64,000 nucleotides of DNA from an uncultured Candidatus Saccharibacteria bacterium. GTDB lineage: Bacteria > Patescibacteriota > Minisyncoccia > Phycocordibacterales > Phycocordibacteraceae. The notes under the pieces were generated by a model. The model saw nothing but the letters and a program-made list of their open reading frames with translations. It was not told the origin of the DNA and made no database searches. The position numbers were made by a program, and so were the translations under genes. Positions 7,345-63,544 of the stretch are shown here, one piece after another (positions within the stretch are counted from its first letter, which is position 1; every line of letters starts with the position of its first letter). Where the stretch lies: NCBI GenBank assembly GCA_964371445.1, contig CAYJLK010000002.1, positions 43,718-107,717 of the forward strand, given 5' to 3'.

Positions 7345-8193
7345 TTAACCCTTACGCTTCTTGCCGACCTTGCGGCGGGAGACGATAAAGACGTTTGAGT
7401 ACTTCTTCGGCGTGCGGGTCTTCTGACCCTTGCCGGTGGGCTTGCCCCACTTGCTCTTCGCCCTGCGGAGCCCGCGCCCCTGCTTACCTTCGCCGCCGCC
7501 ATGCGGATGATCGACCGGATTCATCGCGGTGCCGCGCACCGTCGGGCGGATGCCCATCCAGCGCGAACGGCCGGCCTTTCCGATGACGACGAGATTGTAT
7601 TCTTCGTTGCCGACCGCGCCGATAGACGCCCACGAGAGGTCAGAGACCTTACGGATCTCGGTCGACGGGAGCTTTATCTGCGCATAGCCCGCATCGTGTG
7701 CGACCACCTCGGCATAGTTGCCGGCAGAGCGGACGAGGGAGGCACCCGAAAGCGGAGAAATCTCAATGTTGTAGACGAAGGTGCCGACGGGGATCTTGCC
7801 CAAGGGGAGACGATTGCCCGCGATGAGCGGCGCATTTTCGGAAACGACGAAGGCCGATCCGACTTTAACCTCCTTCGGGAGAATGACGTAGCGGCGCGCG
7901 CCATCGGCATAGAGCGCGAGCCCGATGAAGGCGCTGCGGAACGGGTCGTATTCGACCGTCTCGATTACCGCCGGAATATCCTTCTTATCGTACTTGAAAT
8001 CGACATCGCGGAACCGCTTCTTATGACCACCTCCCTGGTGGCGCGTCGTGATACGGCCGAATGCGTTCCTGCCGCCCTGACTTCCCTTCTTCTTCAGAAG
8101 GGGCTTGTGCGGCGCATGACCTGAAAGAAGCTCCTTGAACGGGAGGGTGGTCATGTGGCGGCGACTCTTGGATGTGGGCTTGTAGGTTTTCAT
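7345..8193 (-). CDS. rplB: 50S ribosomal protein L2
   Basis: 282 aa with L2 motifs (HPHGGGEGK, MNPVDHPHGGGEGK). Confidence 0.92.
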   Translation of the reverse strand: MKTYKPTSKSRRHMTTLPFKELLSGHAPHKPLLKKKGSQGGRNAFGRITTRHQGGGHKKRFRDVDFKYDKKDIPAVIETVEYDPFRSAFIGLALYADGARRYVILPKEVKVGSAFVVSENAPLIAGNRLPLGKIPVGTFVYNIEISPLSGASLVRSAGNYAEVVAHDAGYAQIKLPSTEIRKVSDLSWASIGAVGNEEYNLVVIGKAGRSRWMGIRPTVRGTAMNPVDHPHGGGEGKQGRGLRRAKSKWGKPTGKGQKTRTPKKYSNVFIVSRRKVGKKRKG

Positions 8194-38643: not shown

Positions 38644-40173
38644 TCAACGAGCGAACTCAACGACGCGGTTCTCGCGGATGATATTGATCTTGATTTCGCC
38701 CGGATATTTGAGTTCGTCCTGGACGCGCTTCGCAATATCGCGCGCCAGCGTGTGCATCGCTATATCCGAGACCTTGCCCGGGTTCACGAAGACGCGGATC
38801 TCGCGTCCGGCCGCAATCGCATAGACCTTTTCGACACCGGGAAAGGTGGCAGCGAGGCGCTCGAGGTCGCCGAGGCGCTCGAGATAACGATCCACCGTGT
38901 CGCGGCGCGCGCCCGGGCGACCGCCCGAGATGGCGTCGGCTACTTGGACGATGACTGCCTCCGGCGTCTCATACGGATATTCCTCATGGTGCGATTGCAT
39001 CGCGAGAATGATGCGCTTGTCGACGCCAAACTTCTCGAGGATGCGCCGACCTATCTCGACGTGCGTCCCCTGTACCTCATGGTCCACCGCCTTGCCGATA
39101 TCGTGCAGGAGGGCAGCGGTGCGCGCGATAGAGGCGTCGGCGCCAAGCTCAGTTGCGAGCATGCCGGCGATATGCGCCATCTCGATCGAGTGCTGAAGCA
39201 CATTCTGGCCGAAACTGGTGCGGTAGTGGAGGCGACCAAGGAGCGCAGTGAGCTTCGGATCGAGCCCGATAACGCCGGCTTCATATGCAGCGGCTTCGCC
39301 CTTCTGCTTCACAATCTCAGCCACCTCGGCGCGCGTCTTCTCTACGGTTTCTTCAATCTTTGCCGGCTGGATGCGTCCGTCCTGAATAAGCTTCTCGAGC
39401 GCGATCTTCGCAATCGCGCGGCGAAGCGGGTCGAATGAAGAGAGTGTGATGCGATCCGGCGCGTCATCGATGAGCACATCGACGCCGGTCGCGCGTTCAA
39501 ATGCTTTGATATTGCGGCCTTCTTTGCCGATAATTTTTCCCTTCATGTCCTCCGAGGGGAGGGCGACCGAGAGTGACATCACTTCGGCGTTCACGGCGTT
39601 CCCGAGACGGTGAATCGTCGTCGTGAGGATATCGCGCGCCTTGTCTTCGAGGCGTTCTCGCCCATGCGCGGCGAGTTTCTGTAATCGTAAAAGGATCGCC
39701 TCTTCATGAGCGCGCTCTATTTCTGAAAAAAGCTCTTCGCGCGCCGCTGATTCGGAGAGGTGCGCGACCTTGGCGAGCTCCTTCGAACGTTCGAGAGTCA
39801 ATTTCTCCGCCTCGCTCCGCGCGCGAAGCGCCTCAACTTCGCGCTCCCGCACCTCATCTTCTTTTCCATCGAGATCGCGCTGGCGCGAATCGAGGAATTC
39901 CTCACGCGCCGCGATGCGTTCCTCCCTCGCCGAGAGTTTCTCTTCGCGCTCCTCGATCGGCGCGAGGCGTTCGGTCTCGATGACTTCGCCGCGGAACTCC
40001 GCATCGGCGATAATCTTTGCCGCCTGCTCCTTCGCCTGGAGCAGTTTTCGCTTTGTATCGAGCTCGACCGAACCGCGCTGAGCGAGACCGATAAGGACGC
40101 GCAACACGTAGCCGAGCGCGACGCCGCCCACGCCCGAGAGCGCGAGAAGTACCAATATAATGTTGAGTGACAT
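38644..40173 (-). CDS. rny: ribonuclease Y
   Basis: N-terminal TM, coiled coil, KH domain (GKIIGKEGRNIKAFE) and HD domain (LLHDIGKAVDHE). Confidence 0.9.
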   Translation of the reverse strand: MSLNIILVLLALSGVGGVALGYVLRVLIGLAQRGSVELDTKRKLLQAKEQAAKIIADAEFRGEVIETERLAPIEEREEKLSAREERIAAREEFLDSRQRDLDGKEDEVREREVEALRARSEAEKLTLERSKELAKVAHLSESAAREELFSEIERAHEEAILLRLQKLAAHGRERLEDKARDILTTTIHRLGNAVNAEVMSLSVALPSEDMKGKIIGKEGRNIKAFERATGVDVLIDDAPDRITLSSFDPLRRAIAKIALEKLIQDGRIQPAKIEETVEKTRAEVAEIVKQKGEAAAYEAGVIGLDPKLTALLGRLHYRTSFGQNVLQHSIEMAHIAGMLATELGADASIARTAALLHDIGKAVDHEVQGTHVEIGRRILEKFGVDKRIILAMQSHHEEYPYETPEAVIVQVADAISGGRPGARRDTVDRYLERLGDLERLAATFPGVEKVYAIAAGREIRVFVNPGKVSDIAMHTLARDIAKRVQDELKYPGEIKINIIRENRVVEFAR

Positions 40174-40481
40174 ACGCCCGTTTTGTTACGTTTCGCGCCT
40201 GCGCGCGAAGCGGATAAAGTCTAGAAAGGGGAGGGGCGGTGGAGCGGTCAGTAGCAGCCAGTCAGCGGGGCGGTATGCCCGGACACCACTTTTGGCATTA
40301 TTGTGTTCGTGCCAACCGATGCTTTCGTCCTGCGATATCGCCTTTGTTTTCGCGATTCCACGGAACTGCTCTCGGCACAATAACCAAGGCACGATGCCAA
40401 ATGTGGTGTACGGGTATGAGGGGACTCTACCATAAACAAAACGCGCCGACCAAGTCGGCGCGTTTTGTCTCTCTGTGCTCG

Positions 40482-41084
40482 TTAATTAAACACTTTGTCG
40501 ACGAGACCGTACTTCTTGGCTTCGTCAGCAGTCATGAAGAAGTCGCGCTCCACGTCCTTCTCAATCTTCTCCAGTTTCTGCCCGGTGTTCTTGGCGAGTA
40601 TCTTGTTGAGGACCGCGCGGAGCTTCAGTATCTGCTTCGCCGTAATCTCGATATCAGTCGCCTGACCTTCGGCGCCGCCATGCGGCTGATGAATCATCAC
40701 CTCGGCATTCGGGAGGGCGTAGCGCTTGCCTTTCTGGCCCGCCGAGAGGAGGATCGCCGCGCCCGAGGCCGCCATGCCGACGCACACGGTCGAGACATTC
40801 GGCTTCACGTGATTCATCGTGTCTACCATCGCCAAGGTCGCCGTCACCGAGCCGCCCGGCGAGTTGATGTAGAGGGAAATGTCTTTCTTCGGGTCCTCCG
40901 CCTCCAAAAAGAGGAGTTGGGCGATGACGAGATTCGCTACGTCGTCGTCGATCGGTCCGCCGAGAAAGACGATACGCTCCTTGAGGAGTCGCGAGTAGAT
41001 GTCGTAGGCGCGTTCGCCGAACTGGCTCTTCTCGATGACCATCGGGACGAGCATCGAAGCGCGCGGTTGTGTGTATGTGTTCAT
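40482..41084 (-). CDS. clpP: ATP-dependent Clp protease proteolytic subunit
   Basis: Trimmed to [18 protein letters not shown].... Catalytic Ser context [10 protein letters not shown]. Confidence 0.9.
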
Positions 41085-41101
41085 AGTAAAATAATTAGAC
41101 G

Positions 41102-41356
41102 TTACTCCGCGGTTGCTGACTCGGTAAATATTTGATTCTGCGCGATTCGTTCGCCCCATGCGTAGAAGGCGCCGATGATGATCATAAGCACGATGATGAC
41201 AATCGAGATGACTGCCCCCCAGGACTGTGCGGCGGGAGAGGGGACGCCAAGCGGCACTCCCTGGTGCGCCGCAGGCGTTACCGGCACGCCGACCTGCGGA
41301 GTGTTCTCACCGGACGGAAGAAGTTTTTCGGGTTCCATATTATTTTGAGTCGTCAT
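41102..41356 (-). CDS. small C-terminally anchored membrane protein, hypothetical
   Basis: About 84 aa from [11 protein letters not shown] with a C-terminal TM ([23 protein letters not shown]). Confidence 0.4.
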
Positions 41357-41864
41357 ACATCTTCCGCGCTCGTTCAAAGGCTTCCATCGCCTTTGCGGCG
41401 CCCTCGTATCCGTCGATCTTCACTTCGACCGGTTTCCCTTTGAGACTCTTGTACGTCTCGAAGAAATGCACGAACTCCTTGAGCTGATGCTGATTGACGT
41501 CCTGCAGATCCTGTACATCATCCCAACGCCTATCCTCGACCGGCACGGCAATAATCTTCTCATCGGCGTCGCCGCCGTCGATCATATGAAGAATCCCCAC
41601 CGGCCGCGCGACGACGAGGACGCCGACGTCGAGCGGGTAGGTCGTGAGCACGATCACATCAAGCGCGTCGCCGTCGTCCCAGAGGGTCTGCGGCACGAAG
41701 CCGTAATCGAAGGGATAGGCCGCCGCCGAGTAATTGGCGCGGTCGAGCTTGATGAGACCGGTCTTCTTATCGATCTCATACTTGTTATGCGAGTCCTTGG
41801 GGATTTCAATGATGACGTTCATCGCCTCCTTCGTCCCCGGCTCAATGTCGTGCAGTAGGTTCAT
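41340..41864 (-). CDS. ppa: inorganic pyrophosphatase (family I)
   Basis: From Met15 of the ORF (MNLLHDIEPGTKEAMNVIIEIPKDSHNKYEID...) a canonical PPase. 14 in-frame upstream codons (MRAFASFINIISNG) with a GGGAGG SD lie inside the inverted-repeat element. Confidence 0.88.
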   Translation of the reverse strand: MNLLHDIEPGTKEAMNVIIEIPKDSHNKYEIDKKTGLIKLDRANYSAAAYPFDYGFVPQTLWDDGDALDVIVLTTYPLDVGVLVVARPVGILHMIDGGDADEKIIAVPVEDRRWDDVQDLQDVNQHQLKEFVHFFETYKSLKGKPVEVKIDGYEGAAKAMEAFERARKMYDDSK

Positions 41865-41943
41865 CCCGTTAGAAATTATGTTAATAAACGACGCAAACGC
41901 TCGCATACTTCCTCCCGCTCATTTCGGCATTTCTAACGGGATT
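41864..41943. repeat. inverted-repeat element ATCCCGTTAGAAAT-N52-ATTTCTAACGGGAT at the ppa start
   Basis: Seen directly. Arms at 41864-41877 and 41930-41943 (+/-1). On the ppa sense strand the order is TATAAT-8nt-ATGAATCCCGTTAGAAAT-22nt-ATG(M1)...ATTTCTAACGGG-ATG(M15). Confidence 0.6.
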
Positions 41944-41998
41944 CATATTCGTGGATTATAGCGCAGCGCCGACTTTTTCAAAGTCGGCGTTCGGTTTC

Positions 41999-43414
41999 CT
42001 ATTCGTCTTTCGCTTTGTCGCGATCTTCTCCAGCGTCAGCGACGGTCTCGTCGCTTGCAGGGAGCTGGGTCAGTTCCTCTTCAGCCGGGAGCTCGGTCGC
42101 CTGCGGCGCCTCGTCCGTAACAAGCTCCATGCTCTCGGTCGGCATGAGACCGACCGCAATGGCCGGATCCTCTTCAGGCGTGACGGCGACTGTCTCGCCG
42201 TCTGACTCCGCAACTTCGGCGCCGCCGGTTGAAACGATATCGATGTTCCAGCCGGTAAGCTTCGCCGCGAGGCGGACGTTCTGACCGCCCCTACCGATGG
42301 CGAGCGACTGTTCGTCTTCGGCGACCGTCACCGTCGCGCGGTGATCAGCCTCGTCGAGCACGACGTCAAGCGGGGTCGCGGGGGAGAGCGCCTCTTTTAT
42401 GAATGCTGCCGCATCATCATTCCACTCGATGATGTCGATGCGTTCGCCGCCGAGCTCGCTCATGACGGTCGAGACGCGCACACCGCGCTGACCGACGAGA
42501 GAACCGACCGGATCGACGTGCGGATCCTTCGAGGCGAGCGCGATCTTGGTGCGGCTCCCCGGCTCGCGCGCAAGCGCCTTCACTTCTATCGCGCCCGATG
42601 CGAGTTCCGGCGCTTCCATCTCAAACAGCTTCACCACGAACTTCGGATGCGCGCGGGAGAGGCGCAGATATACGCCGCGGAATCCCTCATCAACCGCATA
42701 GAGATAGGCGCGGATGCGCTCGCCCATACGGTACCGCTCGCCCGGAATCTGTTCCTCGTAGGGGATGATGCCGGTGGTGCGGCCGAGGTCGACAAAGATC
42801 GCCCCGCGCTCCATGCGCTGGACGATGCCGCCCACGATCTCGCCCTTTTTCTCGCCGAATTCCTCCATCATGGAGAGTTTTTCGGCCTCGCGCACCTTTT
42901 GGATGACCACCTGCTTGGCGGTCTGCGCCGCGATGCGGCCGAAGTCGTCCTGCGGCTCGAGCGGGAAGATAATTTCTTCATTCACGCTCACCCCGCGCTT
43001 CATCAGCTTCGCGTCGGCGAGCAGAATGTGCTTCTCGGGGTCAAAGCGCGGCAGCTCGCCTTCGGCGAGATGCTCATCGCCCTCATGAAATCCGTGCCCG
43101 TGCTGGTGCTCCTCGGGAATCTCTTCGCCCTCCTCGGGGAAACGCACCGTCGTGTCGTCCACGACGGTCTTTACCTGTTCAAAGGCAATCGTGCCCGTAT
43201 TGAGGTCGAGTTTTGCATGAACGACCTGTCCGCGCTTGCCGTATTCGCGCTTATACGCAGTCGCCATCGCGCTCTCAATCGCCTCGATCATGGTCGCGCG
43301 GCTGATGCCCCGATCTTCGAACTCTCCGAGCACTGCGTTGATGGTCTTTAGGTCAATCATGGTATGGGTTGTGTATGTTGCACTTTTTAAAAAGAAAGCC
43401 CGCAAAGCGGACAT
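41999..43414 (-). CDS. nusA: transcription termination/antitermination factor NusA with acidic C-terminal extension
   Basis: S1 plus two KH domains (GSRTKIALASKDPHVDPVGSLVGQRGVRV). Long Glu/Asp-rich C-term. True start probably MIDLKTINAV at about 43360. Confidence 0.88.
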   Translation of the reverse strand: MSALRAFFLKSATYTTHTMIDLKTINAVLGEFEDRGISRATMIEAIESAMATAYKREYGKRGQVVHAKLDLNTGTIAFEQVKTVVDDTTVRFPEEGEEIPEEHQHGHGFHEGDEHLAEGELPRFDPEKHILLADAKLMKRGVSVNEEIIFPLEPQDDFGRIAAQTAKQVVIQKVREAEKLSMMEEFGEKKGEIVGGIVQRMERGAIFVDLGRTTGIIPYEEQIPGERYRMGERIRAYLYAVDEGFRGVYLRLSRAHPKFVVKLFEMEAPELASGAIEVKALAREPGSRTKIALASKDPHVDPVGSLVGQRGVRVSTVMSELGGERIDIIEWNDDAAAFIKEALSPATPLDVVLDEADHRATVTVAEDEQSLAIGRGGQNVRLAAKLTGWNIDIVSTGGAEVAESDGETVAVTPEEDPAIAVGLMPTESMELVTDEAPQATELPAEEELTQLPASDETVADAGEDRDKAKDE

Positions 43415-43511
43415 TCAGATAGTTGCAAGTATACCAGATACGCTTCGCACGTCAATAATGTGTGCAATGAGCGTTTTGCCCATAGCAGAGCGCGCTATAC
43501 TTATCCGTAAT

Positions 43512-45260
43512 ATGCACGTTTCGGAAGGCGAACTGAAAGAATTCATCACTGATTCTGGCCTTGTCGCCAAGAAAGAGATCGATGCCGCCGACAAAGAAGC
43601 AAAAGCGCGCGGACAATCGCTCGGTGCGGTCCTCGTCTCGCGCGGTTCTCTGACCGAAGACGCGCTCCGGCGCATCCAGGCATACGTGCTCGGCATTCCG
43701 TTCGTCAATCTTAAGGAACATCGCGTTCCCGTCGACGTGCTCGCGCTCATCCCAGAACCGATTGCGCGCACGCACAACATCATCGCGTTTAAGAAGGACG
43801 GCGACTCCCTTGAAGTGGCGATGCTCGACGTCGAAGACCTCGCATCGATCGACTCGGTGCGGAAGAAGACGGGGCTCAAGATCCTTTCGCGGCTGACCGA
43901 CACGGAGAGCATCAAGTATACGCTTCTGCAATACCAGAAGTCGCTGAAGGACGAGTTCGGCGATATCATCTCGACCGAAGCGGGGAAGATCCGCGTCGTA
44001 ACGGAGGGCGGGAAGGAGCTCTCGGGCGACGAACTGAAAAAGATGGCCGAGGATCTGCCGATCGTGCGCATCGTCGACACCCTGCTCCGCCACGCGATCG
44101 TCCAGGGCGCCTCCGACATCCATATCGAACCGATGGAGAGCGAAGTGCTCGTCCGCTATCGCATCGACGGCATTCTCCACGATGCGATGACACTCCCGCG
44201 GCCTGCGGCCGCGGGCATCGTCGCACGCATCAAGGTCTTGTCCAACTTAAAGCTCGATGAGAAGCGCCTCCCCCAGGACGGCCGGTTCAAGATGGAGACT
44301 GAAGCCGATCGAGTATCCTTCCGCGTCTCGATACTCCCGACCTTCTTCGGCGAAAAGACCGTTATGCGCCTTCTGCGCGAGACCGGAGAAGGCTTCACGC
44401 TTGATGTGCTCGGGCTCCACGGCGAGAATATGGAGCGCATCCACCACGCGCTCACGCAAACGACCGGTATCATCCTTGTCTCGGGGCCGACCGGAAGCGG
44501 AAAGACGACGACGCTCTATACGATGCTCGACATTTTGAATCAGCCGGACGTCAATATCTCCACTGTCGAGGATCCAATCGAATACCAGATGAAGCGCGTG
44601 AACCAGACGCAGGTGAATCCGCAGATAGGATTTACCTTCGCGAGCGGACTCCGGTCCCTCGTGCGCCAGGACCCGGACATCATCATGGTCGGCGAGATCC
44701 GCGACAGCGAGACGGCGTCGCTCGCAATCAATGCCGCACTGACCGGTCACCTGGTCCTCTCGACCATCCACACCAACAGCGCCGCGGGCGCCATTCCGCG
44801 GCTTATCGATATGGGCGTCGAACCGTTTCTGTTGGTCTCTACGCTCCGCGTCATCATCGGTCAGCGCCTCGTGCGCAAGCTCTGCGAGGGCAAGGAGCAA
44901 TACTCAATGGACAAGGCGACACGCGGGAAGATCGCGAGCGAAGAAGAGTTCAATGTTGCATTCAAAACGCTTAAGGACGAGAAGCTGGTGAAAGAAGGTT
45001 CCACGCTCGACGACATCGCGTTCTATCGGCCGAAGGAGTCCGCCGAATGCGCCGACGGATACAAGAGCCGCATCGGCATTCATGAAGTGCTCTCAGTCTC
45101 GCCGACCATCCGCGAGATTATGCTGCACTCGAGCACGAGCGGCGCTATCGAGGAGCAGGCGAAGAAAGAAGGCATGCTCACGATGTTTGAAGATGGACTC
45201 TACAAGGCCGCGCGCGGCGTTACCTCAGTCGAAGAAGTGCTCCGCGCCATCACCGAATAA
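43512..45260 (+). CDS. pilB: type IV pilus assembly ATPase PilB/GspE family
   Basis: Trimmed to MHVSEGELKEF.... GspE N-domain, Walker A VSGPTGSGKTTTLYT, and a tetracysteine-like region. Confidence 0.88.
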   Translation: MHVSEGELKEFITDSGLVAKKEIDAADKEAKARGQSLGAVLVSRGSLTEDALRRIQAYVLGIPFVNLKEHRVPVDVLALIPEPIARTHNIIAFKKDGDSLEVAMLDVEDLASIDSVRKKTGLKILSRLTDTESIKYTLLQYQKSLKDEFGDIISTEAGKIRVVTEGGKELSGDELKKMAEDLPIVRIVDTLLRHAIVQGASDIHIEPMESEVLVRYRIDGILHDAMTLPRPAAAGIVARIKVLSNLKLDEKRLPQDGRFKMETEADRVSFRVSILPTFFGEKTVMRLLRETGEGFTLDVLGLHGENMERIHHALTQTTGIILVSGPTGSGKTTTLYTMLDILNQPDVNISTVEDPIEYQMKRVNQTQVNPQIGFTFASGLRSLVRQDPDIIMVGEIRDSETASLAINAALTGHLVLSTIHTNSAAGAIPRLIDMGVEPFLLVSTLRVIIGQRLVRKLCEGKEQYSMDKATRGKIASEEEFNVAFKTLKDEKLVKEGSTLDDIAFYRPKESAECADGYKSRIGIHEVLSVSPTIREIMLHSSTSGAIEEQAKKEGMLTMFEDGLYKAARGVTSVEEVLRAITE

Positions 45261-58089: not shown

Positions 58090-58524
58090 ATGGAATACCA
58101 GGTGCCGCAGTTCATTGAAGTCGAGGACAAGATCATCGGTCCTTTGACCTTGAAACAATTCATCTATATCGCCGGAGCAAGCGGACTCTGCATCGTTTTC
58201 TTCGTCTATTTACCCATCATCGTCGCCCTCCTCCTCGCGGCGCCGGTGGCAGGGCTCGCAGCGGCACTCTCGTTTTATAAGATGAACGGGAAACCGTTCA
58301 TCGAGGTGCTCGAGGCCGGATTCAGTTATTACACGCGGGGGAAACTCTTCCTCTGGAAACATCAGGACCAAAAGGTCCAGGAAGAGAGCGTCGCGGATAC
58401 GGCCGCCGCGGAGATTCCGTCGCCGCGCGCCACGCCGAAGCTCACGCGCGGGAAGCTCTCGGAGCTTGCGTGGTCGCTCGACGTACAGAAGGCGGGCGGC
58501 AATGCCGAGAACAAGAATCCCTGA
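58090..58524 (+). CDS. PrgI-family / VirB3-like small membrane protein of monoderm-type T4SS
   Basis: MEYQVPQFIEVEDKIIGPLTLKQFIYIAG followed by two TM helices. Immediately upstream of the VirB4 N-domain ORF. Confidence 0.6.
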   Translation: MEYQVPQFIEVEDKIIGPLTLKQFIYIAGASGLCIVFFVYLPIIVALLLAAPVAGLAAALSFYKMNGKPFIEVLEAGFSYYTRGKLFLWKHQDQKVQEESVADTAAAEIPSPRATPKLTRGKLSELAWSLDVQKAGGNAENKNP

Positions 58525-58525
58525 T

Positions 58526-59161
58526 ATGGCGGTACCCTCAGCAAGCGCAACCCAGCAGTTCGTTCCGGTGAAGGAGATCCGGAACGGCATCATTATCCTC
58601 AAAGACGGCGGCTACCGCGGCGTGCTTATCTGTTCCTCGATCAACTTCGGACTCAAGTCGGCCGATGAACAGCACGCGATCACGCTCGGCTTCCAGAATT
58701 TCCTCAATACGCTCGACTTCTCGATACAGATTGTTATCAATTCGCGCCGGATGGACCTGCGTCCCTACCTCGCGCTCCTGGGAGAAAAGTCCGCCGAACA
58801 AAAGACAGAGTTGATGCGGATCCAACTTCGCGAGTATATCGAATTCGTCCGCTCCTTCACCGACCAGGCGAATATCATGACGAAATCTTTTTACGTCGTC
58901 GTCTCATACACGCCGCATGTCAGCGCCGCGAGCGCGACCAGCTTCCTGCGGCGCGAGAATGCCGCGGTGAAGAGCGCCGCTGCCGAGACTTCTTTCGAAG
59001 AAGATCGGGCTCAGCTCGAACAAAGGCTCACACTCGTCGCCGCCGGTCTTGCAGGCACCGGCGTTCGCGCGGTCCCGCTCGGTACTGAAGAGGTCATCGA
59101 ACTGTTGTATCGTTCATTTAATCCGGGCGAACTTGAGAACCCTATCAGGCTCGATAATTAA
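58526..59161 (+). CDS. VirB4/TraE-family N-terminal domain as a separate ORF
   Basis: QQFVPVKEIRNGIIILKDGGYRGVLICSSINFGLKSADEQHAITLGFQNFLNTLDFSIQIVINSRR matches the N-terminus of Gram-positive-type VirB4. Ends 4 nt before the ATPase ORF, in a different frame. Confidence 0.7.
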   Translation: MAVPSASATQQFVPVKEIRNGIIILKDGGYRGVLICSSINFGLKSADEQHAITLGFQNFLNTLDFSIQIVINSRRMDLRPYLALLGEKSAEQKTELMRIQLREYIEFVRSFTDQANIMTKSFYVVVSYTPHVSAASATSFLRRENAAVKSAAAETSFEEDRAQLEQRLTLVAAGLAGTGVRAVPLGTEEVIELLYRSFNPGELENPIRLDN

Positions 59162-59165
59162 ACGT

Positions 59166-60992
59166 ATGGCACTCCTCGACTTTCTCAATCGTAAAAAAGA
59201 AGAAGAAGAAGAAGCGCCGGCGGTCATGCCGGTCTTGCCGAGAGACATCTACCGGCAGGGAGCGCTGAGCCTCGTTGACACTATCGCTCCGACGGCGCTG
59301 AAGATCAGCTCGCGCGAGCTCGAACTCGGAGAAAAATTCGTCCGCGCTTTTTACACTATCTCGTATCCTCGTTTCCTCTCCGACAGCTGGTTCTCGCCCA
59401 TCATCAATCTCGACAAAGTGCTTGATGTCTCTCTCTTCATCCACCCGGTAGAGACCGAACAGGCCCTGCGCGGCTTCCAGAAGAAGGTTGCCGAGGTCCA
59501 GAGCCAGATTAACGAGCGCGAAGCGAAGGGATTGGTGCGCGATCCGCTGCTTGATACGGCGTACCAAGATCTCGAGAGCCTGCGCGATAGCCTCCAGCAG
59601 GCGCAGGAAAAGCTCTTCGATGTCGGCCTCTACCTCGCGCTCTACGGCGACACGAAGGAGGAGATCGACCGGACCGAAGGCGATATCCGCGGTATCCTCG
59701 ACGCAAAGCTCGTCTATACGAAGCCGGCGTTGTTCCAACAGGAGCAGGGGTTCCGCTCATGCCTGCCCTTGGGTAGCGACGAGCTCCTCGTCAATTCGAA
59801 GTTGAATTCATCGCCGCTTTCTTCGATATTCCCGTTCGTTTCTTTCGACCTGACGAGCGACCGCGGCATCCTCTACGGCATCAACCGACACAATTCTTCG
59901 CTTATTCTCTTCGACCGCTTCTCGCTCGAGAACTACAATTCCGTCGTGTTTGCAAAGTCCGGTTCCGGCAAAAGCTACGCGACGAAGCTCGAGATCCTGC
60001 GCTCCCTGATGTTCGGCACCGACGTCATCGTCATCGATCCCGAACGCGAATACGAACAGCTCGCCGAAGCGACGGGCGGACGCTCATTCCACATCTCGCT
60101 CTCTTCCGAGCATCATATCAATCCGTTCGATCTCCCGCCGGTCAAGGAAGACGAGGATCCGAAGGATGTCCTGCGCTCCAACATCATCGCGCTTGTCGGA
60201 CTCTTCCGCATCATGCTCTCGGGACTCTCTCCCGAAGAAGACGCGATCATCGACCGCGCCATAAGTGAAACGTACGCGCTCAAAGACATCACCGGCGATT
60301 CCGACTTTACCGGCGCCGAACCGCCGCTGCTCTCCGATTTCGAACAGGTGCTCTCCGGCATGGAGGGAAGCGAATCGCTGGTCGAGCGCCTCTCGAAATA
60401 TACTCGCGGGTCGTGGTCGGGATTCCTTAATCAGCCAACCAACATCGACCTGAAACAGCAGTTCGCCGTCTTCTCGGTGCGCGATATGGAGGACGAGCTG
60501 AAACCAGTCGCGATGTATATCGTCACGCACTACATCTGGAATGCGGTACGGCACGAGATGAAGAAGCGGCTCCTTATCATCGACGAGGCGTGGTGGATGA
60601 TGAAGAGCGACGACACCGCCTCCTTCCTCTACTCGCTTGCGAAGCGCGGAAGAAAATATTATCTGGGCGTCTGTACCATCACGCAGGATGTCGAGGACTT
60701 CTTGAAGAGCCCGTACGGTCGGCCGATCCTTACCAACTCCTCTATCCAGTTATTGTTGAAACAGTCGCCGACGACCATCGACGTGCTCCAACAGACCTTC
60801 AATCTTACCGATGAGGAAAAATATCTTCTGCTCGAGGCTGGCGTCGGGGAAGGGCTCTTCTTTGCAGGATTGAAGCATGTCGCCATCAAGGTCGTCGCGA
60901 GCTATACCGAGGACCAGATTATTACCTCTGATCCTTCCCAGCTGATCGCCATTAAGCAAGAGAAGGATCGGTATGCCGCAGAAAAGAAATAG
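59166..60992 (+). CDS. VirB4/TraE-family conjugative ATPase (central and C-terminal domains)
   Basis: Walker A FAKSGSGKSY, Walker B LLIIDEAWWMM, FYTISYPRFLSDSWFSPIINL region. 609 aa. Confidence 0.85.
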   Translation: MALLDFLNRKKEEEEEAPAVMPVLPRDIYRQGALSLVDTIAPTALKISSRELELGEKFVRAFYTISYPRFLSDSWFSPIINLDKVLDVSLFIHPVETEQALRGFQKKVAEVQSQINEREAKGLVRDPLLDTAYQDLESLRDSLQQAQEKLFDVGLYLALYGDTKEEIDRTEGDIRGILDAKLVYTKPALFQQEQGFRSCLPLGSDELLVNSKLNSSPLSSIFPFVSFDLTSDRGILYGINRHNSSLILFDRFSLENYNSVVFAKSGSGKSYATKLEILRSLMFGTDVIVIDPEREYEQLAEATGGRSFHISLSSEHHINPFDLPPVKEDEDPKDVLRSNIIALVGLFRIMLSGLSPEEDAIIDRAISETYALKDITGDSDFTGAEPPLLSDFEQVLSGMEGSESLVERLSKYTRGSWSGFLNQPTNIDLKQQFAVFSVRDMEDELKPVAMYIVTHYIWNAVRHEMKKRLLIIDEAWWMMKSDDTASFLYSLAKRGRKYYLGVCTITQDVEDFLKSPYGRPILTNSSIQLLLKQSPTTIDVLQQTFNLTDEEKYLLLEAGVGEGLFFAGLKHVAIKVVASYTEDQIITSDPSQLIAIKQEKDRYAAEKK

Positions 60993-61635
60993 CGCCGAGC
61001 CACCGAAGGTGATGACCTGGGGAAAGGCAGCACCGATTCTTGCTGTGTGTGTCATCTTCGACGCGCTGCGCCTCATGTTCGAAATGTTCTGGTTCTTCGG
61101 ACCGGCGATGGCCGCCCTCTACTGCACCGTTAAGGTGAGCGGGGTGGTCGGAACGACCTTGGGAGGATTTGCCTGCGGTGTCGGCGCTACGGTGGCGGGA
61201 ACCCTCGGAGCTCCCGCCATAGAGGTTTTCGGCGTCGTGATGGCGATAGCTGTCGGACTCTTCGGATGGCTCGTCATCGGACTCTGGCTCATGGTAACGA
61301 ACGCGCGCATTTTCAAAGAGAATGCCGCCTGGTTTGCCGGTAGTCTCCTCATAAGCGAGATACCTATTGTCGGTTCGATACCCGCACTTACCATCATCGT
61401 CTGGAAAATGTACCGCACGCAAATCACGCTAGAAAAAGCCGAGATGCAGCGCTATGAACAGGAGCGAGCCGCTGCCGAACGGCAGGAGCGCGAACAACGA
61501 ATCGCCCTCGTACTCCACAACCAATCACTGCAACAAGCGCAGATCGAGCAGGAAGAGGCGGCGGACGATGCGCTCTCTGCCGAAGCCGCAAATGATGATG
61601 AATATATCCCCCAAAAGATGAGAGAGGCGGCGTGA
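60973..61635 (+). CDS. polytopic membrane protein with coiled-coil C-terminal tail (VirB6-like candidate)
   Basis: 4-5 TM helices then QRYEQERAAAERQEREQRIALVLHNQSLQQAQIEQEE. A GAGAAGGA SD precedes the ATG at 60973. Overlaps the VirB4 end. Confidence 0.55.
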   Translation: MPQKRNSAEPPKVMTWGKAAPILAVCVIFDALRLMFEMFWFFGPAMAALYCTVKVSGVVGTTLGGFACGVGATVAGTLGAPAIEVFGVVMAIAVGLFGWLVIGLWLMVTNARIFKENAAWFAGSLLISEIPIVGSIPALTIIVWKMYRTQITLEKAEMQRYEQERAAAERQEREQRIALVLHNQSLQQAQIEQEEAADDALSAEAANDDEYIPQKMREAA

Positions 61636-62663
61636 CCTCTTGCAAGAGGCGCTATACTAGACGCATGCGTTCTGGTCTCCTCACCATTCTCACTGCCGCC
61701 CTCATGCTCCCCGGTATAGCTGCCGCCCAGGTGTTTGCCGACCTGGGAATAAGCGACACCGCGTCCTTCAATCTCTCCGCCATTCCTCAGTACCCGGTGC
61801 CCTACGGCAAGGTGTCCCTCTCCTTCCTTTCAGGTTCTATCGAGCTAACGAGCGCGACCTTGACCGTTTCCGCAAACGGAAAAGACATATACCGAGGCTC
61901 GGTACAGCCGGTCTCTGTCACGCTCGGAAAGGCGGGGAGCGTAACAAATGTGACGGCGATTATATCTGCCGGCGGCGAGAAATACACTCAGACACTCCGC
62001 ATCCAACCCCAAGACGTCGCGCTCATCGCCGAACCGATCTCCTTCGCGCCCCCGCTCTATCCCGGGAAACCGCTCGTACCACTCGACGGGACTGTGCGCG
62101 TCGTCGCTATGGCGAATCTGAAAAATGTCAGCGGAAAGTCGCTCGACCCCGCGACACTCTCCTACGCATGGGTCGTCGACAACATGCAGATCGCAAACTC
62201 CTCGGGCATCGGCAAGACGGCAATCATGGTCGCCTCGCCGCTTCAGTACCGCAGTCGCGATGTTGCGGTCTCGGTCATGAGCGCCGACGGGAGCCACGTC
62301 GGGGGCGCATCGCTCTCGCTCTCGTCCCTCGAGCCTTCGATACGCCTCTATGAAAATGACCCCTTGCTCGGCATTCGTTTCAACCGCGCCCTTTCGGGCG
62401 CATACTCCATCATGAACGCCGAGTCTTCGCTCTATGCCGCTCCATTTTCGCTCCCGACCCAGCGTGGAGCGCCGCTTATCCAGTGGTTCTTAAACGGAGA
62501 ACCAGCACAGACTGGCGGCTCCATAACCCTGCGACCGACGGGAAGCGGGCAGGGGAGCGCCTCGCTCTCGCTCACTGCCTCCTCAGGGGAGTATGCAAAG
62601 GCGACTGCGAACCTCTCCCTCAAGTTCGGTGAAAAACCCGAATTTAATTTCTTCGGATTATGA
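61632..62663 (+). CDS. secreted protein, hypothetical (T4SS-cluster associated)
   Basis: Signal peptide MRSGLLTILTAALMLPGIAAAQ from Met12 (61665), then a Ser/Thr/Ala-rich beta-type domain. The stop TGA overlaps the next ATG (ATGA). Confidence 0.6.
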   Translation: MTSCKRRYTRRMRSGLLTILTAALMLPGIAAAQVFADLGISDTASFNLSAIPQYPVPYGKVSLSFLSGSIELTSATLTVSANGKDIYRGSVQPVSVTLGKAGSVTNVTAIISAGGEKYTQTLRIQPQDVALIAEPISFAPPLYPGKPLVPLDGTVRVVAMANLKNVSGKSLDPATLSYAWVVDNMQIANSSGIGKTAIMVASPLQYRSRDVAVSVMSADGSHVGGASLSLSSLEPSIRLYENDPLLGIRFNRALSGAYSIMNAESSLYAAPFSLPTQRGAPLIQWFLNGEPAQTGGSITLRPTGSGQGSASLSLTASSGEYAKATANLSLKFGEKPEFNFFGL

Positions 62664-62741
62664 ACCCCGTTAGAAATCACGAACAAAATATGAAAGATAA
62701 AAATGTGGCAGGAAGTCGCATGGGTTCTATTTCTAACGGGG
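62660..62741. repeat. second copy of the inverted-repeat element ATGAACCCCGTTAGAAAT-N51-ATTTCTAACGGG-GTG
   Basis: Arms at 62665-62677 and 62729-62740. Same arm sequence, spacing and flanking ATGAA / RTG as the ppa copy. Spacer sequences are unrelated. Confidence 0.6.
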
Positions 62742-63544
62742 TGAAGAAAACGACGCTCATTCTCTCTGTTCTCTCATTTTTCGCGCTCGCCTCGACCGCC
62801 TTTGCACAAGGATTCGTCCCGCTCGCACCGATACCCGGTCTCACCGAGGGCGCGACAGCAGACACGGCTGGTCTCGCGAACTTCTTCAACAACCTCTACA
62901 AATATCTCATCGGTCTCGCTGCTGCGCTCGCTGTCATTGAAATCATCTGGGGCGGACTTGAAATATCGACACAGGATTCGGTGAGCAAGAATAAAGACGG
63001 GAAGGATCGTATCTATCAGGCGATCTTCGGCCTTGTCCTCGTCCTCTCGCCAGTGCTTGTCTTCTCCATCATCAATCCGAGTATTCTGAATCTCTCATTG
63101 AATCTCCAGAAGCTGGATACAGCATCCACAGCACCAAGTCCAGTACCAAGTGGAACGGGAACAGGGGACACAACCACAGCGACTGCAGCTGGATGCTCTG
63201 TGTCACTTAATCAAGGCGTTGTTGGTTGCCCGACTCAAGCAGCAGCTGATGCCTGGGTTAGTTCATGTTCGAACGGCACTGGGCGCGTGTATCTATCAAA
63301 TGAAGCTTCGTTACCTTATGCGGCAACCTGTAACGTCTTGCAACCATTTCGGGGAAACCAAAATTATACTGACAAGACAACGATCCCAGCAGGGCTGTGG
63401 TGTTTCAAGACCGAAGATGCCAACAAGCCCAACACTATTGTTTACACCTGCGGTGCAAGTAAAGACGCCTGCGACACCCTCGCTATGCGTCCTCCTCTAG
63501 GAGGACGTGTCTTCGCCGATTGTGCAAGCCCTCCTCCTAATTAA
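62660..63544 (+). CDS. pilin-like (VirB2/TrbC-like architecture) secreted protein with Cys-rich C-terminal domain
   Basis: Signal peptide, two hydrophobic helices (LANFFNNLYKYLIGLAAALAVIEIIWGG; IFGLVLVLSPVLVFSII), Thr-rich linker, 8 Cys in the last about 110 aa. Start ambiguous among ATG 62660 (coupled), ATG 62720 (AGGAAG SD) and GTG 62741. Confidence 0.55.
   Translation: MNPVRNHEQNMKDKNVAGSRMGSISNGVKKTTLILSVLSFFALASTAFAQGFVPLAPIPGLTEGATADTAGLANFFNNLYKYLIGLAAALAVIEIIWGGLEISTQDSVSKNKDGKDRIYQAIFGLVLVLSPVLVFSIINPSILNLSLNLQKLDTASTAPSPVPSGTGTGDTTTATAAGCSVSLNQGVVGCPTQAAADAWVSSCSNGTGRVYLSNEASLPYAATCNVLQPFRGNQNYTDKTTIPAGLWCFKTEDANKPNTIVYTCGASKDACDTLAMRPPLGGRVFADCASPPPN

Follow-up and report, generated by a model that had tools for sequence, protein, structure and literature searches.

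Miniature palindromic elements that occupy and rebuild start codons in Patescibacteria and other phyla

Among short palindromic repeats, REPINs are strictly extragenic, build each arm from a palindromic REP, and leave no target duplication. Reportedly, as set out by Bertels and Rainey in 2011, they are dispersed short hairpin repeats with compensatory arms, moved in trans by a single-copy RAYT. The Correia/NEMIS repeats of Neisseria and the ERIC sequences of enterobacteria are MITEs, or miniature inverted-repeat transposable elements, cotranscribed with neighboring genes as hairpins that can alter the fate of the mRNA; RNase III cuts the terminal inverted repeats (TIRs) of Correia, and RNase E plays this part for ERIC (PMC10969869). 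Rickettsia palindromic elements (RPE) are mobile palindromes inserted in frame in coding genes and tolerated as an extra peptide (PMC10969869). The TIRs of piggyBac elements have CCC-type starts, their 4-bp target duplication has the variants TAAA, TATG, TCAA, and GTAA, and IS1380 is their prokaryotic outgroup (PMC10813416); they excise seamlessly via complementary 4-nt overhangs and have asymmetric ends (PMC7351741). ISEcp1, of the IS1380 family, makes a 5-bp duplication and reuses the target TATGA (PMC2887853). Here, we analyzed a 64,000-nt stretch (the window) of contig CAYJLK010000002.1 from an uncultured Candidatus Saccharibacteria bacterium, in which the same inverted repeat surrounds the translation starts of ppa (copy 1) and of a pilin gene of a type IV secretion system (T4SS; copy 2). 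Both copies are assigned to a previously undescribed family of miniature mobile hairpins, spread across phyla, which sit on start codons and restore them; the searchable literature yielded no account of the element.

Two insertions in the window and their empty orthologous sites

Direct reading of copy 2, on the plus strand, gave ATGAAC (62660-62665), arm A (CCCGTTAGAAAT, 62666-62677), a 51-nt spacer, arm B (ATTTCTAACGGG, 62729-62740), and GTG (62741-62743). Copy 1, on the minus strand, carries ATGAAT before arm A, its arms at 41929-41940 and 41865-41876 around a 52-nt spacer, and the ppa ATG (41864-41862) directly 3′ of arm B. This reading bears out the initial annotation on the arms, their 51-52 nt spacing, the 5′ ATGAA, the start codon at arm B in both copies, and the encoded MNPVRN (arm A) and ISNG (arm B); its range for copy 1, 41864-41943, was right to within 2-3 nt. 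The 12-mer arm occurs four times in the 64-kb window versus 0.16 expected, and none of 100 shuffles reached four, which confirmed that the repeat is real and far from chance. Matches with 2-3 mismatches remained at chance level (33 versus 41 expected); thus, the window holds exactly two copies and no decayed ones.

To define the family, genomes (one per species) were scanned for CCGTTAGAAAT-N40-65-ATTTCTAACGG, and the resulting counts are lower bounds. Alignment of the flanks of 121 copies showed that the base outside each 12-mer is complementary between left and right in 98% of them and therefore belongs to the inverted repeat, which makes the terminal repeats 13 bp long (Y-CCCGTTAGAAAT ... 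ATTTCTAACGGG-R; 13-14 bp). The next 4 nt outward form a direct repeat with 78-87% identity per position, and the sixth position is at chance. Direct repeats of at least 5 nt flank 57/121 copies, versus ∼6 when left and right flanks were re-paired at random; the target duplication is 4 bp and sometimes 5 bp. The duplicated 4-mer is mostly TGAA, with TGGA, TGAG, TGTA, TAAA, TTTA, TTAA, and CCCTG found too, and it covaries between the two sides. A terminal inverted repeat combined with a target-site duplication is the signature of transposition. The 5′ ATGAA that the initial annotation saw in both copies is thus there, its TGAA being the left copy of the 4-nt direct repeat that flanks the inverted repeat.

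On this basis, copy 2 consists of a left TGAA duplication (62661-62664), a left 13-bp TIR (C plus CCCGTTAGAAAT, 62665-62677) that encodes (N)PVRN in frame, the spacer (62678-62728), a right 13-bp TIR (ATTTCTAACGGG plus G, 62729-62741), and a right TGAA duplication (62742-62745), all on the plus strand. Copy 1 spans 78 nt on the minus strand (41864-41941), with the left repeat at 41941-41929, the spacer at 41928-41877, and the right repeat at 41876-41864, between a left TGAA at 41942-41945 and a right TGAA at 41860-41863; the original ppa ATG lies at 41946-41944 and the rebuilt one at 41864-41862.

The element is absent from most orthologous sites. Eighty metagenome ppa loci were fetched by protein homology alone (66-91% identity; L numbers below denote compared loci, and P numbers denote proteins from protein databases). 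About 75 of the 80 are empty, reading ...TATAAT-N7/8-ATGAAC TTA CTG..., whereas an insertion stands at exactly the TGAA of A-TGAA in five of the 81 loci compared, namely the window, L125, L130, L137, and L168. The nearest relatives of the filled loci are empty, including all of the closest relatives of L168 (80-82% DNA identity), and the sole copies present in the 324 kb of ppa-selected loci sit at the ppa start. Between the window and L125, the flanking noncoding DNA is 97% identical, while the spacers are unrelated (52 versus 95 nt) and the inner-arm variants differ. Unrelated spacers and arm variants at the same codon indicate that at least three subfamilies entered the ppa start independently.

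The pilin locus behaves alike. Most pilin homologues begin at MKK... and their genes read …ATGAAAAAA… at the start, i.e., an empty site, whereas a subset carries MNPVRN...ISNG-VKK.... Empty sites in L204 and L205 read ...TTCGGCCT-ATGAAAAAAACGACT, compared with ...TTCGGATT-A-TGAA-(C CCCGTTAGAAAT...ATTTCTAACGGG G)-TGAA-GAAAACGACG in the window (element in parentheses), where the upstream gene and its ATGA overlap are as in L204/L205: the TGA at 62661-62663, overlapping the original pilin ATG, is the stop of the upstream open reading frame (ORF) 61632-62663. Eight loci are filled (the window, L206 to L211, and L212, which keeps an arm-A remnant only); this set first leaned to intact arms, and decayed copies were then added. 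L210 carries a different subfamily at the same start codon. Decayed or partly deleted copies occur at both genes (L137 at ppa; L210, L211, and L212 at the pilin). The copy 2 spacer is homologous to the pilin-locus spacers of L206, L207, and L208 (54-69% identity). The comparison thus shows presence and absence at exactly the same position in orthologous genes and independent entry of different subfamilies into the same start codons.

Terminal repeats, target duplication, small size without a transposase ORF, many dispersed copies, and exact empty sites are all features of MITEs. The initial annotation had dismissed a MITE because the spacers differ, a verdict overturned by the terminal repeats, the covarying 4-bp duplication, the exact empty sites, and the independent subfamily insertions. 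Both window copies are very probably insertions of a small, nonautonomous, palindromic, MITE-like mobile element, here 77-78 bp long. As for the origin of the spacers, a guide or capture scheme in which they pair with or derive from their own flanks was discarded, because the scores equaled those of re-paired controls.

Rebuilt start codons and probable routes of expression

In 60/121 copies, arm B is directly followed by an ATG or GTG with an ORF of 60 codons or more, and 42-44 of these copies have an ATG at the equivalent left position. Once empty sites were rebuilt, 64/119 insertion points were gene-start-like; across the same loci, this test was passed by 7.8% of all TGAA sites (p = 4e-39) and by 14% of all ATGAA sites (p = 2e-24). 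The bias to gene starts for which the initial annotation had proposed scanning genomes is thus real (∼54% versus 8-14% expected). The left start is always ATG, and the right one is ATG if the element ends in A and GTG if it ends in G. The new start is therefore made of the terminal purine of the element and the duplicated TG, which explains the GTG at the pilin gene and the ATG at ppa. In copy 2, the original pilin ATG (62660-62662, plus strand), identified by direct reading and the empty sites L204/L205, now starts an element-encoded extension, and the rebuilt GTG (62741-62743) joins the terminal G of the element to the TG of the duplicated target. The genes that carry the element vary widely in function, and many are essential; they encode, among others, aminoacyl-tRNA synthetases, DnaA, pyruvate kinase, guanylate kinase, PPase, a hibernation factor, and a type II secretion system (T2SS) pseudopilin, so the insertion cannot be inactivating. 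In each of the seven copies that lie within long ORFs, the spacer length is divisible by three. Spacer length modulo 3 (25/23/12) indicates no overall in-frame preference, which rules out the element as a coding insert.

The architecture suggests how genes could stay expressed. Insertion into A-TGAA-N, i.e., the start codon and the first two bases of codon 2, retains the native ATGAA on the left, along with the native promoter, coupling signals, or the overlapping stop of the upstream gene; on the right, the terminal purine and the duplicated TG supply a new ATG/GTG directly before the intact gene. By direct reading, the leader from the original ATG is M-N/D-P-V-R-N. Arm B reads ISNG in frame 0 and runs into the gene, N-F-stop in frame 1 (UAA, 4 nt before the new start), and F-L-T-G-stop in frame 2 (UGA overlapping RUG). 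Ribosomes from the original ATG would either read through in frame via ISNG or stop at the arm-B TAA or the overlapping TGA and then reinitiate, and an in-frame start within some spacers may offer a further route. Of the 42 leader ORFs that begin at a left ATG, 18 reach arm B, 7 as fusions and 11 with adjacent stops, versus 8.9 expected from shuffled spacers; the other 24 meet an early stop in the spacer, and 10/24 have an in-frame internal start. Bypassing of the T4 gene 60 type appears unlikely, as take-off and landing codons mismatch at copy 2 (AAC versus AAG).

Frame 0 of copy 2 stays open throughout, its spacer holds two in-frame ATGs (62690 and 62720), and the element adds 27 codons ahead of the signal peptide (VKKTTLIL...) of the T4SS pilin gene (PF18895 T4SS_pilin/PF04956 TrbC; 62741-63544, plus strand). 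This extension of the signal-peptide n-region should leave with the cleaved signal peptide. In the L206-L209 copies, whose loci were picked for having the extension, the spacer measures 51 or 54 nt and codon 11 is an ATG. Gene callers start the pilins at differing points inside the element (MNPVRN..., MKDKN..., or MNKTKFISNG...), as seen in P0001, P0010, P0012, P0020, P0022, P0025, P0027, P0029, P0035, P0072, and P0078. Element-derived residues annotated as protein N termini are to be expected in many unrelated families as well.

In copy 1, the 5′ ATG opens a 21-codon leader ORF, and the spacer contains GGGAGG-N5-ATG in frame with ppa. The initial annotation placed a Shine-Dalgarno (SD)-like sequence in both spacers; that of copy 1 is convincing, whereas that of copy 2 is not. 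An SD-like GGAGG followed by ATG is kept in L130, where the ATG opens a 4-codon ORF, and in L168, where it opens a short ORF ending at the arm-B UAA. A TATAAT-like box stands 4-11 nt before the ATG in 35/72 empty ppa sites, and an SD in none, so that native ppa looks leaderless. In the window, the TATAAT box (41955-41960, minus strand), which is kept at empty orthologous sites, lies 8 nt upstream of the original ppa ATG in a leaderless-type arrangement. A consensus promoter scan called no sigma-70 promoter at copy 1, and the leaderless reading therefore draws on the conserved TATAAT only. Directly upstream of this box, after the nusA stop, lies a perfect hairpin (GCCGACTTTGAAAAAGTCGGC, window 41968-41988); over this block of hairpin and promoter, the window and L125 share 97% identity, compared with ∼82-85% in the coding DNA on either side.

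The ORF listing, which is that of a Patescibacteria-type genome, places nusA-ppa on the minus strand and the T4SS genes on the plus strand. The latter form a compact T4SS-like cluster with overlapping genes (58090-63544) that comprises a VirB4-like ATPase (ORF 59049-60992), a multipass membrane protein (ORF 60973-61635), a 343-aa secreted protein (ORF 61632-62663), and the pilin. Elsewhere in the window are an ORF like type IV pilus/T2SS ATPases (43236-45260) and RNase Y-like and ClpP ORFs (38644-41159).

Arm conservation and competing explanations

Positions 1-9 of the arm (CCCGTTAGA) are near-invariant (∼97% of 91 gene-start copies), whereas positions 10-12 change in compensated pairs (GAAGT/ACTTC, GAAGC/GCTTC, GAAAA/TTTTC, GAGAT/ATCTC, and GAGGT/ACCTC). 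The covariation analysis suggested in the initial annotation thus found compensatory changes, 20 pairs in all and nearly all of them at the three inner positions. Minimum free energy RNA folds of both window copies contain the arm stem (z = -3.4 for copy 2 and z = -1.7 for copy 1). The stem, proposed earlier at 12 bp, extends to 14 bp through pairing of the next two outer bases on either arm. In 35/60 gene-oriented copies, the spacer holds a third motif, AACGGGR, a partial likeness of arm B that usually lies 5-23 nt after arm A; one further copy carries it reversed. While the transcript is nascent, this motif folds with arm A into a hairpin of 8-9 bp. At equilibrium it lowers the stem probability by little (0.89 versus 0.97), and its role as an equilibrium decoy that frees the start codon was discarded for that reason.

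The element would be moved by a DDE transposase acting in trans with piggyBac/IS1380-like chemistry, i.e., a 4-bp staggered cut, CCC-type ends, and seamless excision; this is a weaker part of our proposal, and the likeness is a lead that concerns resemblance rather than membership. Seamless excision would explain filled sites scattered among empty close relatives; the exact empty sites themselves fit sites never occupied and sites precisely vacated equally well. In 1.3 Mb of loci, no arm pairs lay 300-5000 bp apart, as those of an autonomous parent would, and no protein family recurred next to copies in 123 loci; both results fit a nonautonomous element. Lone arms are decayed copies, none of them beside transposase-sized ORFs.

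Several observations weigh against this account of a transposed MITE-like element. No transposase with the termini of the element was found among the loci compared. Unlike at canonical piggyBac ends, an additional base pair (Y/R, complementary) stands between the duplication and the CCC. Covariation of the inner arms is not required by a DDE transposase and hints at a functional hairpin, of either RNA or single-stranded DNA. Across the ppa copies of the window, L130, and L168, there are 0 changes in 72 arm nucleotides, whereas the spacers are 63-68% identical; in the eight pilin-locus copies, partly picked for intact arms with decayed ones added, the arms show ∼3% change versus ∼40% in the spacers. 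As read from these alignments, arm conservation is beyond neutral decay, and a purely selfish fossil does not explain it. The coupling route is not universal, since 24/42 leaders stop early, and the recurrent use of particular starts may stem either from targeting or from tolerance of insertions. Finally, some matches outside Patescibacteria could be misbinned contigs. Possible reasons for the slow evolution of the arms are an in-place function (as RNA hairpin or protein site), hairpin-templated repair, or repeated excision and reinsertion by the same sublineage.

The first of these leads to an alternative that we consider unlikely, in which the once-mobile element is now kept in place by the host, either as a 5′-proximal RNA hairpin that tunes mRNA stability or initiation or as the site of a hairpin-binding protein, with its arms under purifying selection. 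Among homologous copies, the arms are 97-100% identical versus ∼60% for spacers and 57-81% for coding flanks, as host selection would have it, and it would also accommodate the depletion of stops in the leader frame of the spacers and the stable fold of copy 2. The internal motif points the same way: AACGGGR follows gene orientation in 35/36 gene-start copies, whereas in copies elsewhere the direction of the duplication varies with respect to it. This difference speaks against an insertion mechanism that sets the orientation, and the bias looks like an outcome of selection instead of insertion chemistry. Uncompensated arm changes on the sense strand lean to G.U (15 versus 7 A.C), a trend that is not significant. 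However, most orthologues, the closest ones included, lack the element and evidently express ppa or the pilin, decayed copies exist, the host genes share no function, and the outer 9 nt are conserved across phyla in sequence, beyond what pairing demands.

A mobile hairpin that travels as single-stranded DNA by means of an enzyme that recognizes hairpins, be it an HUH/Y1 transposase (IS200/IS605 or RAYT-REPIN type) or a recombinase like those of integrons, is unlikely. Covarying inner arms beside an invariant outer 9 nt are the pattern expected of a protein that reads a folded hairpin, bare copies with 3-nt loops exist, and the asymmetric subterminal half-site AACGGGR can pair with arm A. Yet HUH/REPIN families make no duplication and insert by a fixed tetra- or pentanucleotide, whereas here a 4-bp duplication covaries with the target; copies sit on start codons and inside ORFs rather than in intergenic DNA only; and no Y1 or RAYT gene recurs near them. 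The resemblance to integron attC sites (GTTRRRY/RYYYAAC) was dropped on direct reading because the two core-like sites, GTTAGAA ... TTCTAAC, come in the opposite order to those of attC.

Insertion of a mobile element also accounts better for the loci than a dedicated cis-regulatory device, which the initial annotation favored as a translational control hairpin or, alternatively, as paired operator half-sites for one regulator, and which the empty orthologous sites largely refute and we find very improbable. A start codon at the base of the stem, arm centers ∼six helical turns apart, and the bias to gene starts are what such a device would show. Absence from ∼75/80 ppa orthologues and from most pilin homologues means that the element is not a conserved leader or riboregulator of these genes, and a target-site duplication is present. 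Such a device, operator half-sites included, fits poorly with copies inside ORFs and in phages, with hairpins with 3-nt loops, with arm spacings from 3 nt to >100 nt, and with the spread across phyla. The host gene functions are unrelated, and Rfam searches with gathering and E-value thresholds returned only noise at the element, four tRNAs being the sole matches in the window. An effect of the hairpin on translation is plausible as a by-product of insertion. An invertible segment for phase variation of the pilin N terminus, suggested by the perfect inverted repeats that enclose a short stretch where a surface-protein gene begins (5′ end), has a negligible chance. The spacer has the same orientation in all homologous copies (the window and L206, L207, L208, and L209), and so it does in P0001 and P0010, which come from independent assemblies; the internal motif runs one way in 35/36 gene-start copies; housekeeping genes such as ppa, those for aminoacyl-tRNA synthetases, and dnaA carry the element too; no recombinase gene recurs nearby in 123 loci (the window neighbors are T4SS genes); and 51 nt is very short for recombinase synapsis.

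Spread of the family and comparison with known systems

Among the matches listed, at least 120 genome loci carry the element, mostly in Patescibacteria, and the other phyla include Planctomycetota, Omnitrophota, Elusimicrobia, Thermodesulfobacteriota/Deltaproteobacteria, WOR-3, KSB1, and more. Several of the non-Patescibacteria contigs have high G+C and typical planctomycete twin-arginine translocation (Tat) signals. In a Phycisphaerae contig, two paralogous Tat-signal genes (MNRRDFLK...) both carry the element (L056:3455-3518 and 7822-7885), with the extension preceding the twin-arginine signal; the near-identical 42-nt in-frame spacers and flanks indicate that the gene was duplicated after insertion. 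Three matches lie in viral contigs, one a true phage and one a Mu-like transposable phage. L201 (10.8 kb) has the element in a phage with portal and Mu-F-like genes, and L202/L203, parts of one 30-kb viral contig, hold 3 or 4 copies in a Mu-like transposable phage with Mu transposase and a MuB-like ATPase. Phages are thus a possible vehicle for spread between hosts; the Mu-type transposase of L202 was rejected as the mover, because its chemistry does not fit.

When mismatches and any spacing are allowed, arms pair at distances from 3 nt (bare hairpins) to >100 nt, which gives elements of ∼40-150 bp, and several copies can share an 8-kb stretch. Bare copies with arms 3-6 nt apart form perfect hairpins (L092:1694-1720, L111:4381-4407, L116:2633-2659, L087:2845-2871, and L202:3963-3992) and may be minimal mobile units or deletion products. 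In nested copies (L069:865-1007, around 898-962, and L118:1620-1795), a GAAGC/GCTTC variant encloses a GAAAT/ATTTC variant, showing that elements insert into each other or beside existing ends. One subfamily has a G+C-rich 42-nt spacer (GCCCGC..GCGC..GGGC..GCGGGC) in otherwise A+T-rich host genomes (L009, L015, L034, L040, L103, L107, and L115; e.g., L015:1150-1215); it shows compensatory changes of its own (GCTCGC...GCGAGC in L107), lies in frame inside long ORFs in L015, L034, and L103, and looks like structured cargo that arrived recently by horizontal transfer. In another, a second small hairpin, GGAAATCT-NNN-AGATTTCC, adjoins one arm (L043 and L053; L024, L060, L082, L091, L065, and L125). 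The spacers of this subfamily are ∼70% identical across different genes and genomes; whole elements, beyond the arms alone, have therefore been copied to new sites.

A bolder version of the insertion account, which we offer only tentatively, is that of a start-codon-adapted, piggyBac/IS1380-like MITE. Its ends would have evolved for harmless insertion at ATGAA, through the terminal purine, the ISNG frame, the TAA, and the overlapping TGA, and seamless excision would make occupation of the start codon reversible. The element would then spread horizontally and modulate translation initiation reversibly, at genes that recur as its targets, in streamlined genomes with almost no intergenic DNA, and the arms would evolve slowly because of a conserved hairpin-binding protein or the need to stay excisable. 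In a more extreme variant, ribosomes or initiation complexes would be shunted across the closed hairpin between the duplicated start codons.

If the proposal of start-codon insertion is correct, it would mark the first description, for the Candidate Phyla Radiation and neighboring phyla, of a mobile element that lands on start codons and repairs them on arrival, and the element would explain how transposons persist in genomes with almost no noncoding DNA. Gene callers would be adding false or optional N termini (MNPVRN…ISNG) to hundreds of unrelated proteins, whose start sites would be misassigned. As a natural system, the family would also lend itself to work on leaderless initiation, on termination-reinitiation, and on how well signal peptides tolerate an extension. 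The 13-bp termini, identical in different phyla and in phages, are the mark of an agent that moves horizontally, and the slowly evolving arms may hint at a protein, of the host or of the element, that reads the hairpin. The enzyme, if a bacterial relative of piggyBac/IS1380 with seamless excision, could interest genome engineers.

Set against the described systems, the element shares with REP/REPIN sequences two arms that evolve in compensation, together with short, dispersed, hairpin-forming units; it departs from REPINs in arms that are not self-palindromic, in its 4-bp duplication, and in copies on start codons. Like Correia/NEMIS and ERIC, it is small and nonautonomous, with hairpin-forming terminal repeats and a short target duplication. 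Those repeats, however, measure 100-155 bp, are confined to a genus or family, lie in intergenic DNA, and duplicate TA, whereas the present termini are identical across phyla, the duplication is 4 bp of the TNNA type, and half of the copies lie exactly on start codons. Preservation of the reading frame in copy 2, in 7/42 start-site copies, and in 7/7 copies inside long ORFs recalls RPE, which are ∼150 bp long, occur only in Rickettsia, and enter genes internally; the present element typically sits at the start codon, shows no general bias toward keeping the frame, and has stop codons in the arm that serve the other two frames. To our knowledge, there is no IS1380-derived start-codon element, while piggyBac-derived MITEs are known from eukaryotes. 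The piggyBac terminal sequence is CCCTAGAAAGATA; the resemblance of the termini is short and could be coincidence, and the target of our element is not TTAA. In overall layout, the element resembles piggyBac/IS1380 in ∼13-bp terminal repeats with an invariant CCC (CCCGTTAGAAAT, here one base pair in from the duplication), a 4-bp duplication (4-5 bp in IS1380), exact empty sites that may reflect seamless excision, and asymmetric subterminal repeats; its consensus target is T-A-TGAA.

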